DNA of 64,000 bases, taken from NCBI GenBank assembly GCA_900318865.1, contig ONMF01000009.1, forward strand, positions 25,042 to 89,041. The letters are read 5' to 3'. Position 1 is the first letter of the stretch; each line of letters opens with the position of its first letter. The stretch is from an uncultured Prevotellaceae bacterium. GTDB lineage: Bacteria; Bacteroidota; Bacteroidia; Bacteroidales; Muribaculaceae. Shown here one piece after another: positions 30,826 to 37,922 of the stretch. The translations under genes and the position numbers were made by a program. Under the pieces are notes generated by a model. That model was not told the DNA's origin and ran no database searches. It saw only the letters and a list, made by a program, of their open reading frames with translations.

Positions 30826-32901
30826 ATGAAGACGAAGGCAAGAAACAGACTGATGTGCGTCGTGGCGATGGTGGCCCTGGCCTGGGGCGCCGCATGGTCG
30901 CAAATCAATACCGACCAGGTGATGGCCATCGGTCGCAATGCGCTTTACTTTGAGGATTACATCCTGTCGATTCAATATTTTAATCAGGTGATTAAAGCCA
31001 AGCCGTTTCTTGCCGAGCCTTATTTCTACCGTGCCGTGGCTAAAATCAACCTCGAGGATTACAATGGTGCCGAGCAAGACGCCACGCTGGCCATCGAGCG
31101 CAACCCCTTCATCGTGGACGCCTATCAGGTGCGCGGTGTGGCACGCCAGAACCGTCGCGACTTTGCCGGCGCGGTGGCCGACTACGCCGAGGGCCTGCGG
31201 CTTATGCCCGAGGAGAAGGTGTTCATGATGAACTCGGCGGTGTGCTACGGCGAGTTGCACGACTACGAGGCGGCGCAGCGTGCCTACGACCGCTTGCTGT
31301 CGGTCGACCCGAACAATGACCGGGCACAACTGGGCCTGGCGCATCTGTACCTGATGCGCAAAGACACCGTGGAGGCGCTCAAGCATGTGGACCGCTCGCT
31401 GGAACTGTCGAAAAACAATGCCGGTGCCTATGTGATGCGTGCCGCCATCGCCACGCGCTCGCGCGGCGACTACGAGCAGGCCCTGGCCGATATGGACGAG
31501 GCCATCAAGCTCGAGCCGCATCAGGCCGGTTACTTCATCAACCGCGCGTTCATCAAGTACAACCTCGACGATTATTTCGGCGCGATGGCCGATTATGACT
31601 ATGCCGTGGGCCTGGACCCGGCGAGCATCGAGGCGCACTTCAACCGTGGGCTGCTGCTGGCCGAGGTGGGGGAGAACAACAAGGCCATCAATGATTTTGA
31701 CTTTGTGCTGCAGAGTGATTCGCACAATTTTATGGCACTTTATAACCGTGCCATGCTTTACTTCCGCACGGGGCAGTACCGGCAAGCCGTGCGCGACTAC
31801 GACGAGGTGCTCAAGAAATACCCCAATTTCGAGGCCGGCTTCATGGCCCGCGGCGAGGCGAAGCGTCGCATGGGCGACATGCGTGGCAGCAATGCCGACT
31901 ATGAGCACGCTTTGTCGCTGTTCAAACGCAAGAAAACCCATGTTTCCGACTTCAATCCGGCCGAAATAGAAGTGAACGCCGCCATCCGCAAGCGTGAACA
32001 GCAGGAACTCACCGGGCAGTCCGAGCCCGAGACCGAAGAAGAAATCATGAACCGCTTCAACACACTGCTCACGGTGGCACCCGAAAATCCCATCAAGCCC
32101 GAGTATGCCAACAAGCAGCGCGGCCGCATTCAGAACACCAACGTCGAGATAGAGCCCGAGCCGATGATGCTGCTCACCTATTATACGCGCGATAACAAGC
32201 TCAACGGCAAGACGTACTACCTGCGGGAGATAACCGAGCTCAACGAGTCGCGGCTGCTGCCAGCCACGCTGGCCCTGGTGAGTGGCGAACAACGCCTCAA
32301 CGAGGACGAGATTAAGCGCCACTTTGCCAGCATCGAGTACTACGACGGCCTGCTGGCAACGGCCAAGCCCCGGTCGGTCGACTATTTTGCGCGAGCGATG
32401 GACTACCTGCTGGTGAAGAATCCCGCCGCAGCCGTGGCCGATGCCGACCGCGCCATCGCCATGAGTCCCAAATTTGCCATGGCGTATCTGCTGCGCGCCT
32501 GCGCGCACTATATGCTCTACCAGATGGGGCACAGCGCCATGGCTGCCGATGGCGACGCGACGACCGACACCCAGACGCGCGCCATGCTGCGCCAGCGTGA
32601 GGACGCCGCAGCCCTGCAGCAGGTGCTCAACGACATCGACTCCCTGCTGACACTGTCGCCCAAGAACGTGTACGCCTACTACGACAAGGGGAACGCCTGC
32701 ATGCTCCAGGCCGACTACACCAGCGCCATCAGCTGCTACACGAAGGCCATCGAGCTCAAGCCCGACCTGGGCGAGGCTTATTACAACCGTGGCCTGATGT
32801 ACCTCAGGCTGGGTAATAAAGAGCGCGGGGTGGCCGACTTGAGCCAAGCCGGCGAGCTGGGCATCCTGCCCAGTTACAACGTGCTCAAGCGGATGCAGTG
32901 A
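30826..32901 (+). CDS. Secreted tetratricopeptide-repeat protein
   Basis: Signal peptide and many TPR units (AYFNRG, YNRAML, AYYNRG); start set at MKTKAR. Confidence 0.9.
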   Translation: MKTKARNRLMCVVAMVALAWGAAWSQINTDQVMAIGRNALYFEDYILSIQYFNQVIKAKPFLAEPYFYRAVAKINLEDYNGAEQDATLAIERNPFIVDAYQVRGVARQNRRDFAGAVADYAEGLRLMPEEKVFMMNSAVCYGELHDYEAAQRAYDRLLSVDPNNDRAQLGLAHLYLMRKDTVEALKHVDRSLELSKNNAGAYVMRAAIATRSRGDYEQALADMDEAIKLEPHQAGYFINRAFIKYNLDDYFGAMADYDYAVGLDPASIEAHFNRGLLLAEVGENNKAINDFDFVLQSDSHNFMALYNRAMLYFRTGQYRQAVRDYDEVLKKYPNFEAGFMARGEAKRRMGDMRGSNADYEHALSLFKRKKTHVSDFNPAEIEVNAAIRKREQQELTGQSEPETEEEIMNRFNTLLTVAPENPIKPEYANKQRGRIQNTNVEIEPEPMMLLTYYTRDNKLNGKTYYLREITELNESRLLPATLALVSGEQRLNEDEIKRHFASIEYYDGLLATAKPRSVDYFARAMDYLLVKNPAAAVADADRAIAMSPKFAMAYLLRACAHYMLYQMGHSAMAADGDATTDTQTRAMLRQREDAAALQQVLNDIDSLLTLSPKNVYAYYDKGNACMLQADYTSAISCYTKAIELKPDLGEAYYNRGLMYLRLGNKERGVADLSQAGELGILPSYNVLKRMQ

Positions 32902-33046
32902 CGATTGCCGGAAGTGTGTGTGCGGCGCCTCCTCGCCGTGCATTTCGGGCCGGCTTTTCCCGGTCCGGGGGAGCTCCGGGGCATGGGCGACAAGGTGATA
33001 GCTCAAATAATCAAGGCATTTCGCACAACTTGCACCATTTTTTTAT

Positions 33047-33054
33047 TATCTTTG
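33047..33054 (+). promoter_or_regulatory. Bacteroidetes -7 promoter element for thrS
   Basis: TATCTTTG matches TAnnTTTG. Similar elements lie upstream of infC, the TMEM43 gene, the ncRNA (38001), the SPOR gene and the tRNAs (50341). Confidence 0.7.
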
Positions 33055-33070
33055 CGGGTGATTTACAAAT

Positions 33071-33098
33071 CGCCGTCGTGTTGTTGTAGGACACGGCG
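33071..33098 (+). promoter_or_regulatory. Candidate thrS translational operator hairpin with Thr-anticodon-like loop
   Basis: CGCC(GUC)GUGUU-GUUGUAG-GACACGGCG; the 7-nt loop carries U-UGU-A and ends 23 nt before the ATG. Confidence 0.5.
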
Positions 33099-33121
33099 CA
33101 AAACATTTTATATATAGCATT

Positions 33122-35062
33122 ATGATTAACATTACTTTTCCAGATGGAAACGTGAAGCAATTTGAGAGTGGAACGACGCCCTATCAGATTGCCGAGAGCA
33201 TCAGCGCCGGGCTGGCTCGTAACATCCTGGCCGCTAAGTTGAACGACGAGGAGTGGGACATCTCCCGCCCCGTCACAAGCGATGGCAGCATCCAGTTCTT
33301 CAAGTGGGAAGACCCCGAGGGCAAGCACGCCTTCTGGCACACCAGCGCCCACTTGCTGGCCGAGGCATTGCAAGAGCTGTATCCGGGCGTGCAGTTCGGA
33401 ATAGGACCCGCCATCGAGAACGGGTTTTACTACGACATCGACCCGGGTGAGCACCAAATCACCAGTGCCGACTTCGACAAGATTGAGAAAAAGATGGCCG
33501 AGCTCGTGGCCCGCAAAGAGGCCGTGGTGCGCCATGACATCAGCAAGGCCGACGCACTGAAGTTCTTCGGCGACGGCGGGCAGACGCTCAAGTGCGAGCT
33601 CATCAGCGAGCTTGAGGACGGCCACATCTCCACATACACACAGGGCCGGTTCACCGACCTGTGCCGCGGCCCGCACATTCCCAGCACCGAGCCCATCAAG
33701 GCCGTGAAAATCCTGTCGCTGGCCGGTGCCTACTGGCGCGGCGACGAGAAACGTCCGCAACTGGTGCGCGTGTACGGCATCTCCTTCCCCAAGAAGAAGA
33801 TGCTCGACGAGTATCTGGTGATGCTCGAGGAGGCCAAAAAGCGCGACCACCGCAAGATTGGCAAGGAAATGGAGTTGTTCGCCTTCTCGCAGAATGTGGG
33901 TGCCGGTCTGCCGTTGTGGCTGCCCAAGGGTGCCGCTCTTCGCAACCGTCTTCAGGACTTCCTGGCCAAGATACAAAAGAAATACGGCTACCAGCAGGTG
34001 GTGACCCCGCACATCGGCAACAAGATGCTGTACGTCACCAGCGGGCACTATGCCAAGTACGGCAAAGATTCGTTCCAGCCCATCCACACGCCCGAGGAGG
34101 GAGAAGAATACCTGCTCAAGCCCATGAACTGCCCGCACCACTGCGAGATTTACCGCACGGCACCCCGCAGCTACCGCGACCTGCCGCTTCGCTTCGCCGA
34201 GTTCGGCACGGTCTACCGCTATGAGCAGAGTGGCGAACTCCACGGGCTCACACGCGTTCGCTGCTTCTGTCAGGACGATGCCCACTTGTTCTGCACCCCC
34301 GACCAGCTGAAGCAGGAGTTCCTGGGCGTGATGGACATCATTTCGTTCATTTTCAGCATCTTCGGGTTTGACTATGAGGCTCAAATCTCGCTGCGCGATC
34401 CCAACCATCCCGAGAAATACGTGGGCAGCGACGAGAATTGGGAGAAGGCCGAGCGTGCCATCATCGAGGCGTGTGAGGAGAAGGGACTCAAGGCCCGCCA
34501 GGAGACCGGCGAGGCAGCCTTCTATGGACCGAAGCTCGACTTCATGGTGAAGGACGCCCTGGGCCGCCGCTGGCAGCTGGGCACCATCCAGGTCGACTAC
34601 AACCTTCCTGAGCGCTTCGGGCTGGAATACACCGGTGCCGACAATCTCAAGCACCGCCCGGTGATGATTCACCGCGCGCCATTCGGCTCGCTGGAGCGCT
34701 TCATCGCCGTGCTGCTCGAGCACACTGCCGGCAAGCTTCCGCTGTGGCTGGTGCCCGACCAGTGCGTGGTGCTTCCCATCAGCGAGAAATACAACGACTA
34801 TGCTCACCGCGTGATGAATGAGCTCAACGCGCTCGATGTGCGCGCCACCATCGACGAGCGAAACGAGAAAATCGGTCGCAAAATCCGTGACAATGAGCTC
34901 AAACGCATCCCCTATCTGCTCATCGTGGGCGAAAAAGAAGAAGCTTCGGGCGAAGTTTCTGTAAGAAAACAGGGCGAAGGTGATAAAGGTTCGAAAAAAA
35001 TTGCTATCTTTGCAGCCGAAATAAATGACGAAGTGGCCCGGATGACGAATTTTAATGTCTGA
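33122..35062 (+). CDS. thrS: Threonyl-tRNA synthetase
   Basis: TGS domain, [52 protein letters not shown] and [13 protein letters not shown]. Confidence 0.98.
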
Positions 35063-35102
35063 TGGGGCTACGTTGTCGTGTACTGATAACTATTAAAATT
35101 AC

Positions 35103-35762
35103 TTGATGGACAAGAAACCATTTTGGAGCGGACCCAAGCGTCCGGCAGGCCCTCCGGGCCCACGCCCCAAGCGCGACCGCAACCAGCCCGCGGGCAAGAA
35201 AGACAAAGACACACATGCCGTGAACGAGCAAATCAGGGCACGGGAAGTGCGCCTTGTGGGTGACAATGTGACCGAGGGAATCTACCCCCTGTCGCAAGCA
35301 CTCAAGATTGCCGATGAGCTGGAGCTCGATCTCATCGAAATCGCGCCCCAGGCGCAGCCCCCGGTGTGCCGTGTGATGGACTACCAGAAGTTCCAGTTCC
35401 AGCAGCGCAAGCGGCTCAAGGAGCAGAAGGCCAAGTCGACCAAGATTGTGGTGAAGGAAATACGGTTCGGACCGCAGACCGACGACCACGACTACAACTT
35501 CAAGCTCAAGCACGCCATCGCCTTCCTCAAGGAGGGTGCCAAGGTGAAGAGCTATGTGTTCTTCAAGGGCCGTTCGATTCTCTTCAAGGAGCAAGGCGAA
35601 GTGCTGCTGCTCAGGTTTGCCAACGACCTGGAGGAATATGGCAAGGTGGAGCAGATGCCCGTGCTCGAAGGCAAGCGCATGACCATCATGCTCTCGCCCA
35701 AGAAGCCCGGTCAGGCCAAGAAGAAAGACGATGCCGCGGCGGCTCCTGCCGAGGACAAGTGA
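35103..35762 (+). CDS. infC: Translation initiation factor IF-3
   Basis: [35 protein letters not shown]; the start is TTG 35103 or ATG 35106. Confidence 0.96.
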
Positions 35763-35877
35763 ACCTGGTGGCCGGCCGAATATCAGCGCACGAAAACGAA
35801 CAGAGAGAAAAGGGGCATCAGGCTTGTAAGTGCCTGGTCCTCGATTAGTTAATAATTTTTTTAAACAAATTTACAAA

Positions 35878-36072
35878 ATGCCAAAAGTTAAGACTAATTC
35901 CGGTGCCAAAAAAAGGTTTACCTTTACCGGAACAGGGAAGATTAAAAGAAAACATGCTTACAAGAGTCACATCTTGACCAAGAAGAGCAAAAAGCGTAAG
36001 AGAAACCTCACCCACGTGAGCATCGTTGACAAGGCCAACCTGAATCAGGTGCGCACGCTGCTGGTGAAGTAA
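35878..36072 (+). CDS. rpmI: 50S ribosomal protein L35
   Basis: [27 protein letters not shown]. Confidence 0.97.
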
Positions 36073-36194
36073 TCCGAGCCAACCAACGTTTTCATCACAA
36101 ATTTTAATCTTTAAGAGATTTTTATCATTTTTACTAACCGGATGCGTAGCTCAAAGCGCGACTTCGCCGCTCACATCCAAAACAATTTAAAAAA

Positions 36195-36545
36195 ATGCCA
36201 AGATCAGTAAATCACGTAGCTTCACGAGCTAAACGAAAGAAAATCTTAAAACTTACACGCGGTTACTTCGGAGCACGCAAAAACGTGTGGACCGTTGCCA
36301 AGAACACCTGGGAGAAGGGTTTGACCTATGCCTATGCCGACCGTAAGAAGAAAAAACGCAACTTCCGCGCTCTCTGGATTCAGCGTATCAATGCCGCTGC
36401 CCGTCTGGAGGATCTCTCTTACAGCAAGCTCATGGGCCTCATCCACAAGGCTGGCATCGAGATTAACCGCAAGGTGCTTGCCGACCTGGCCATGAACAAT
36501 CCCGAGGCCTTCAAGGCTATCGTGGAGAAGGCCAAGAACGCCTGA
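36195..36545 (+). CDS. rplT: 50S ribosomal protein L20
   Basis: [16 protein letters not shown]...[14 protein letters not shown]...[10 protein letters not shown]. Confidence 0.98.
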
Positions 36546-36593
36546 CACCACTTCCCCACGGAATGACTGTGCCCTGAGGCACAGGCCGATTCG

Positions 36594-36630
36594 TAAAAGC
36601 GGACCCCGCAATCATGCAGGGCCCGCTTTT
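36594..36630 (+). terminator. Terminator after rplT
   Basis: AAAAGCGGACCC...GGGCCCGCTTTTT. Confidence 0.65.
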
Positions 36631-36728
36631 TGAGGTGCCTGCCTTGACTGTTTGTTGAATTGTGAGAAAATCACTATCTTTGTCACAATCACTTGGAAAC
36701 ACTAACCGACTTTAATAATGAAGGAATT

Positions 36729-37922
36729 ATGTTCGGCTTTTTGAAAAAAGCGGGAGGCGTGGCAATCATGGTGTCGGCCATGGCGCTGCTGGCGTGGAAC
36801 GAGAGCCATTCGTTTCATGCGCACAACCTGTTTGCAGAGGCGGCCTCCAAGCTCACTATCGTGGACGATACCACGACCGTGAACCCCGCCAACGAGGGGC
36901 GCCTGCTTTTCATGAACGTGTGGGCGCACCTGGGCGATGAGGCTGTGGACCCGCTCTACGGCATCGGGGGGCAATGCCTCTCGGTGGAGCGGCAGGTGCG
37001 GTATTATCAGTGGCAGGAGAGAGCTATTGAGACCAGTCATCGGACCGCTGATGGCACCCGCACCTCGAGCACCCGGTACGAGTATTACCACGTCTGGAGT
37101 GATAAGATCATTGACCCTGCCAAGTTCTCGGGCCCGCGGGCGAGCGGGTACGACAACACACCCGTGGTGCAGATCGAGCCGCTCAAGACCTATTCACGCG
37201 GTGCTAAGCTCGGCCCTTACCTGATGACCACCGAACTTGTTGACAGCATGCCGGCGCTCAAGAGCAATATAGCCGACGGCAGCGGCACACGCAATCGGCA
37301 ACTTGCCGCCGCCATCGACTCTACCTCGCGAGGTGGCACGGTTCCCACCCATCAGGTCGACAATTTCATCTTTTATGGCGACAACCCCGCCAAACCCATT
37401 GTGGGCGATGTGCGCGTGTCGTTCGTGCGCCGCGTGCCGGCCAAGATGTGGGTGCTGGCGCAGGCCCATGCCGACAGCATCCGCCCCTTTGTGGGCTCGG
37501 AGCATTACTGGCTCACCTATTCGCGAGTGAGCACCCAGCAGTTCGACCCTCAGGAGGAGATAGATACCGAAACGTGGGGCTTCGATGTGCTGGTGTGGGT
37601 GCTGCGCGTGATAGGGTGGCTGCTCATGGTGTGGGGCATCAAGTGGGCACTCGAAATCTTCACGTCGCTGCTGGCCGGTGTGCCCGTGGTGGGGGTGGTG
37701 GCCACCGCCGCCGCTTCGCTGGTGAGCTGGGCGCTGGGTACGGCGCTGAGCCTGCTGGTGATAGCACTGGCTTTCTTGGTGATACGTCCTGTGGTGAGCC
37801 TGTGCGTGCTCGGTGGGATGGCCATCGTGGCCGTGGCCGGCTGGTACTTGCACCGCTCGCGCACCGCCCGGTCCAAGCAATCGCTTCCCCCGCCATTGCC
37901 CCCGCCATTGCCCCCGCAATGA
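36729..37922 (+). CDS. TMEM43 (LUMA/DUF1625)-family membrane protein
   Basis: N-terminal TM ending LAWNE, NEGRL, DPLYG, R.VRYYQWQE, GDVRVSF, then four C-terminal TM helices (WVLRVIGWLLM, VPVVG, LVIALA..IRP). Confidence 0.75.
   Translation: MFGFLKKAGGVAIMVSAMALLAWNESHSFHAHNLFAEAASKLTIVDDTTTVNPANEGRLLFMNVWAHLGDEAVDPLYGIGGQCLSVERQVRYYQWQERAIETSHRTADGTRTSSTRYEYYHVWSDKIIDPAKFSGPRASGYDNTPVVQIEPLKTYSRGAKLGPYLMTTELVDSMPALKSNIADGSGTRNRQLAAAIDSTSRGGTVPTHQVDNFIFYGDNPAKPIVGDVRVSFVRRVPAKMWVLAQAHADSIRPFVGSEHYWLTYSRVSTQQFDPQEEIDTETWGFDVLVWVLRVIGWLLMVWGIKWALEIFTSLLAGVPVVGVVATAAASLVSWALGTALSLLVIALAFLVIRPVVSLCVLGGMAIVAVAGWYLHRSRTARSKQSLPPPLPPPLPPQ

Follow-up and report, generated by a model that had tools for sequence, protein, structure and literature searches.

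A candidate threonyl-tRNA synthetase operator resembling the tRNA-Thr anticodon loop in thrS leaders of Muribaculaceae

The thrS locus and its leader hairpin

The window, which is the whole stretch of 64,000 nucleotides analysed here from a rumen Muribaculaceae bacterium, carries the gene for threonyl-tRNA synthetase (ThrRS), thrS, whose product contains the Pfam domains TGS, tRNA_SAD, tRNA-synt_2b, and HGTP_anticodon and, in a PDB sequence search, gives a full-length alignment to E. coli ThrRS (1QF6). According to the ORF list and Pfam, thrS is followed on the same strand by infC, which begins with an ordinary ATG at 35106, and then by rpmI and rplT, and the neighbor on the 5' side of its leader is a TPR gene that ends at 32901. 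A Bacteroidota-type promoter is predicted upstream of thrS, and transcription would start a few nucleotides past its −7 box, so that the leader would measure about 60 nt (Table 1). The spacer before the start codon (33099–33121), as read from the sequence, lacks a Shine–Dalgarno (SD) sequence, and no terminator or attenuator was found after the leader hairpin. When positions 32000–37500 were scanned against Rfam at E values up to 10, no genuine match emerged, the sole hit, to Hovlinc, being rejected as spurious. A small upstream hairpin at 33057–33074, with arms GGUGAUU/AAUCGCC closed by a UACA loop, extends across the predicted transcription start; it includes the word UACAA (33064–33068) and is confined to the closest relatives.

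Table 1. Coordinates of the features of the thrS leader within the window
Feature	Position	Strand	Basis
Predicted Bacteroidota −7 promoter box, TATCTTTG	33047..33054	+	Sequence; consensus TAnnTTTG
Hairpin 5' arm, CGUCGUGUU	33074..33082	+	RNAfold; covariation on 93 genus hairpins
7-nt loop GUUGUAG	33083..33089	+	RNAfold; tRNA numbering G32 U33 U34 G35 U36 A37 G38
Anticodon-like UGU of the hairpin loop	33085-33087	+	RNAfold loop, tRNA numbering
Hairpin 3' arm, GACACGGCG	33090..33098	+	RNAfold; covariation
AU-rich unstructured 23-nt spacer from hairpin to AUG	33099..33121	+	Sequence; presumed 30S landing region
thrS, threonyl-tRNA synthetase (regulated gene and proposed repressor)	33122..35062	+	Pfam, PDB search, ORF list

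RNAfold and the sequence agree with the original prediction that the leader between promoter and ATG is mostly one hairpin, the dominant fold being a stem of 9 bp, including two U-G pairs, that closes a 7-nt loop with the predicted U33-UGU-A37 geometry. The stem length returned by the program is 8–9 bp (33074/5–33082 with 33090–33097/8). The hairpin had initially been placed at 33071–33098; its fold and 3' end stand, but its 5' limit was 3 nt too generous, corresponding to an alternative register. A pseudoknot between the loop (UUGUA) and a UACAA at 33064–33068 was considered and rejected, as no leaders but those of the closest relatives (L001, L002, and L111) contain UACAA. Folded alone, the 81-nt leader stretch has a modestly unusual energy (z = −2.2), and the significance of the hairpin therefore rests on comparison.

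The genome has three genes for tRNA-Thr, with the anticodon loops UUGGUAA, UUUGUAA, and UUCGUAA, and from position 33 to 37 the hairpin loop is identical to that of tRNA-Thr(UGU), UUUGUAA. Positions 32 and 38 (G and G/U in the hairpin) are unlike those of the tRNA (U and A). The stem top, GUGCY/GGCAC, is likewise unlike the anticodon stems of the Thr tRNAs of the genome, and in the alignment of the genus it is more conserved than pairing alone demands; given these two properties, another partner for the hairpin is conceivable.

Conservation within the genus and beyond

The thrS leaders of 98 species of the same genus were gathered, and a covariance model (R1) built from 17 of them detected the hairpin in 91. 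By eye, four of the seven leaders missed by the model keep a similar loop: GCCCGUAG in both L175 and L177, AUUCGUGU in L131, and, in L134, GUUGUAG closed by a stem made up of G-C pairs alone. None of the 58 distinct copies departs from G35, U36, or A37, and U33 does not vary either. At position 34, both U and C are found, in parallel with the free wobble position of the Thr tRNAs of the genome, and an additional C sometimes extends the loop to 8 nt. The loops accordingly read GUUGUAG, GUUGUAU, UUUGUAU, CUUGUAU, or 8-nt forms with CGUA, and some copies have a loop length of 8–9 nt. Thus, the anticodon nucleotides that confer threonine identity do not vary.

Covariation was computed on 93 aligned hairpins of the genus against 500 shuffles. 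In the aligned stems, 86.2% of the cells are paired, compared with 26–51% in slid registers, and cells changed on both sides number 50 versus 19.1 in the shuffles, none of which (0/500) reaches the observed score. Compensatory changes on both sides occur at six of the nine stem pairs, so that the check proposed beforehand, a fixed loop G-U on a covarying stem, came out positive in the genus; wholly different stems are seen in L127 (GUUCC/GGAAC) and L134. G-U accounts for 76 of the 515 pair cells (15%), and reading the alignment in antisense lowers the pairing from 86% to 71.5%. Read from the opposite strand, the G-U pairs become A-C mismatches, and the structure is therefore one of sense-strand RNA. 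A perfect stem is present in 77 leaders; in these, stem and AUG are a median of 27 nt apart, across a spacer that is 81% A+U, and the TAnnTTTG box, scored in 77 leaders, mostly lies 10–27 nt upstream of the hairpin.

The hairpin is linked exclusively to thrS. In the genome of the window, the model of the genus finds a single match, at 33072–33100 with 36.1 bits, the next best reaching 14.9 bits, and across 121 genomes of the genus no match with an E value below 6e-4 is found anywhere but immediately upstream of thrS; thrS is cut by the contig end in five of the assemblies, three of which were checked. No second copy was found in any genome of the genus searched with the model. Weaker R1 matches at second sites, two on an rpoN promoter and the others within coding regions, were rejected as chance. 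The rpoN-promoter matches lie immediately upstream of an rpoN-like (sigma-54-like) ORF in L191 and L192 (G100:C5 and G088:C30), where the −7 box lies in a 6-bp AU-rich palindrome, TTGTAA/TTACAA; this palindrome, in which the −7 box TAccTTTG is followed by TA, scores 27–28 bits with the thrS model, and two species share it. Counted by form alone, hairpins with a 7-nt N-U-N-G-U-A-N loop number 15 in 11.9 kb of thrS leaders, compared with 25 in the 928 kb that flank them.

Several species of the genus carry departures from the standard arrangement. Three of them (L125, L132, and L133) have tandem double hairpins, 14–25 nt apart, with anticodon-like loops, of which the first in L132 is GUUGUUG (A37 to U). 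In L197 and L198 (183–211; genomes G094 and G032), an intact hairpin lies about 124 nt from the ATG, past a repeat-rich insert of short tandem repeats made up of GTTAGCC/GTTAGTC units and then CATCTAA-like units. In L006 (genome G005), about 40–70 nt upstream of thrS, the loop is GUUGCAG (U36 to C), and what was the loop is now buried in a 10-bp stem, free of mismatches, formed with an upstream complement, so this leader may hold a decayed or rewired operator.

Outside the genus, R1 matched one leader, that of a Parabacteroides MAG (L059, E = 0.028), and gave nothing meaningful across the phylum sample; it does not transfer, and the genus-specific stem dominates its score. Other lineages were therefore surveyed with a plain hairpin descriptor written in Python. 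Stems of at least 6 bp closing 7–9-nt loops with Y-N-G-U-A gave 11 matches in 9.9 kb of non-genus leaders (10 of 90 loci) and 69 in 796 kb of flanks, an enrichment of about 13-fold in the leaders. Similarly, YGUA occurs in a hairpin loop in 17 of 121 non-genus Bacteroidia leaders versus 219 of 7088 control windows (Fisher p = 3e-7); the leader loci are not all independent, roughly ten lineages being counted. The most enriched loop 4-mer of all in the non-genus leaders is CGUA.

Loops with the YGUA core precede thrS in Duncaniella and other Muribaculaceae, the Parabacteroides MAG, Porphyromonas, and Dysgonomonas. In Alistipes, four species share an identical 21-nt inner part, and one outer-stem pair differs on both sides yet stays paired; in Paludibacter, the loop is AUUUGUAA or ACUCGUAA and lies 6–8 nt from the AUG. 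Another Bacteroidales family has a conserved two-hairpin form whose second hairpin abuts the AUG, and one genome from another order of Bacteroidia has a 6-bp stem with the loop UUCGUAU. The element is nonetheless patchy across Bacteroidales. Most thrS leaders of Bacteroides, Prevotella, Dysgonomonas, and the Flavobacteriales type lack a mimic hairpin, indicating that it is dispensable, and those of Bacteroides, Prevotella, and the Flavobacteriales-like group are mostly short and unstructured. Sister genera in Muribaculaceae mostly have other hairpins or none. Among other Muribaculaceae, L033, L035, L038, L039, L043, L048, and L051 carry GC-rich thrS-leader hairpins of 6–10 bp with loops that lack the G-U-A core; such hairpins may have taken the place of the mimic or have no relation to it. 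In 29 genomes from other classes of the phylum, the descriptor found no comparable thrS hairpin. ARAGORN placed a co-oriented tRNA-Val(GAC) gene directly upstream of thrS in eight of these 29 (L236, L237, L240, L242, L243, L249, L250, and L259).

A putative autoregulatory operator and its alternatives

The hairpin is probably an operator on the thrS mRNA through which ThrRS regulates its own synthesis, one that would have arisen by convergence and would not be a homologue of the E. coli element. This reading is favored because the loop is conserved, the stem compensates, the element is exclusive to thrS, and the loop recurs on unrelated stems; it is weakened because there is a single hairpin here and the E. 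coli operator uses two. Isolated domain 2 of the E. coli thrS operator binds more weakly. As far as sequence analysis goes, the autoregulatory operator put forward in the original prediction is supported by covariation in the genus, specificity for thrS, and recurrence elsewhere.

In such a mechanism, when free ThrRS is in excess of uncharged tRNA-Thr, the anticodon-binding domain of the enzyme would take the hairpin loop, making contact through the equivalents of G35 and U36 (33086–33087). The bulky ThrRS dimer would thereby be held 23 nt upstream of the AUG (23–27 nt in the genus) on a leader without an SD sequence, where it would hinder docking of the 30S subunit on the AU-rich spacer, and thrS translation would fall; the step blocked would be translation initiation rather than mRNA stability. 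Competition from tRNA-Thr for the same site would relieve repression. Bacteroidia initiate translation without SD pairing, and leader structure is known to tune initiation in them (PMC6847099, PMC7797042). The leaders L197 and L198 do not fit simple steric occlusion, given that their hairpin is about 124 nt from the AUG. The tandem hairpins of the three species and the two-hairpin form of the other family would suit a dimeric binder, and they echo domains 2 and 4 of the E. coli operator.

The main rival is that the hairpin serves some different purpose in the leader, as an mRNA stabilizer, a processing site, or the site of an RNA-binding protein other than ThrRS, for example, and that its likeness to the Thr loop is coincidental. 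It is unlikely, yet the conserved sequence of the stem top, the retention of the hairpin far from the AUG in two species, and the presence in several Muribaculaceae genera of GC-rich thrS-leader hairpins without a YGUA loop are what it would lead one to expect. Coincidence, however, would then need to account for the loop on unrelated stems in eight or more lineages, exclusively before thrS; the letters that do not vary are the identity nucleotides for threonine, and the one that does is the wobble position. No genome searched holds a second copy, and the hairpin begins at least 10 nt downstream of the predicted −7 box, in contrast to typical stabilizers of the 5' terminus.

Far less probable is an operator for L20, L35, or IF3 that mimics an rRNA site and controls the whole thrS-infC-rpmI-rplT cluster. 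The four genes do stand in one row on one strand, and operons of this kind are under L20 control in E. coli and Bacillus (PMC1865079). Known L20 sites, however, precede infC or rpmI and not thrS, the Rfam L20 leader model has no match in 32000–37500, nor has any other family, the model of the genus finds no similar hairpin elsewhere in the genome of the window, and the loop matches tRNA-Thr.

More improbable still is a role at the DNA level, with the hairpin sequence serving as a palindromic transcription-factor site immediately downstream of the promoter, as might be suspected from the position of the inverted repeat some 20 bp away from the −7 box: the G-U cells of the alignment (15%) would be unpaired on the other strand or as DNA, as the antisense drop in pairing reflects, and the invariant part is the asymmetric loop and not the arms. 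Firmicutes control thrS by T-box-type or attenuation-type sensing of tRNA-Thr, but a T-box or leader-peptide attenuator sensing tRNA-Thr charging is hardly credible here, for there is no Rfam T-box match at E values up to 10 and no terminator, the leader is only about 60 nt long, its loop holds the anticodon and not a Thr codon, and no small ORF is conserved, a candidate mini-ORF across the hairpin (GUG-NNN-UUG-UAG) being rejected because its GUG-UAG frame is missing in some copies.

If the operator reading holds, the hairpin would offer a simple one-hairpin, one-protein test system for the repression of translation initiation where ribosomes ignore SD sequences, and it would add to the catalog a cis-regulatory RNA family missing from Rfam. 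Natural variants would serve as ready-made controls, including U or C at position 34, 7- and 8-nt loops, tandem copies, the copy shifted by 124 nt, and the copy with U36 changed to C; L197 and L198 would be a natural test of whether the distance from hairpin to AUG matters. A broader view, for and against which the case is about evenly balanced, is that ThrRS anticodon-mimic operators arose repeatedly across Bacteroidia, in single and double forms and on unrelated stems, as a class of SD-independent translational operators. Such a class would open a natural route to understanding how initiation is stopped by a repressor on mRNAs that lack an SD sequence.

Comparison with known systems

Mimicry of tRNA as a means of ThrRS autoregulation has its place in textbooks, but the literature searched documents it only for E. 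coli. No paper on an anticodon-mimic hairpin of thrS in Bacteroidota was found, in line with the original prediction, which was aware of no such description. A non-homologous version in Bacteroidia would mean that the solution evolved more than once. Repeated origins across Bacteroidia would, in turn, help to mark thrS autoregulation by tRNA mimicry as a widespread convergent solution and no peculiarity of E. coli.

The remaining systems resemble the hairpin more distantly. Firmicute thrS/thrZ T-box leaders are likewise cis-acting leader RNAs that couple thrS expression to tRNA-Thr. A T-box, however, binds the tRNA itself via a codon in the specifier loop and acts on transcription termination, and its parts, namely a specifier loop with a Thr codon, the T-box sequence, and a terminator/antiterminator, are absent here. 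In yeast, anticodon mimics are found in the mRNAs of AspRS, HisRS, and others, and there, too, the synthetase is considered to recognize its own transcript at a replica of the anticodon loop of its tRNA; these elements are eukaryotic, otherwise placed, and serve other synthetases (PMC6542539, PMC9976931).

The closest counterpart is the E. coli thrS operator (domains 1–4; structure 1KOG), through whose anticodon-like hairpins ThrRS represses its own mRNA and in which altering the anticodon-like triplet shifts control to MetRS (PMC11088916, PMC9976931). Both elements lie in the 5' sense-strand leader of thrS and share the loop core U-(U/C)-G-U. In the leader of E. coli K-12, the upper stem of domain 2 (GUGAUC/GGUCAC, loop UUCGUGU) ends about 22 nt before the AUG, compared with 23 nt here, which bears out the similar distance from the start that had been predicted; the loop of domain 4 is AUUUGUUG. 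Position 37 differs, being kept as A here and G or U in the E. coli operator loops. The E. coli operator also has two mimics (domains 2 and 4) joined by the single-stranded linker of domain 3, in contrast to one hairpin and no linker here, and forms with two hairpins are confined to L125, L132, L133, and another Bacteroidales family. Directly 3' of the mimic, E. coli has the SD-containing domain 1, in whose place an AU-rich spacer without an SD sequence is found here. The stems are unrelated to those of the E. coli leader, the overall layout differs, the phylum is different, and no Rfam family is matched. Given that the two domains, the SD domain, and homology are all lacking, the element is not filed in the family of the E. 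coli operator; judged from its sequence, it most likely works like that operator while standing outside its family.
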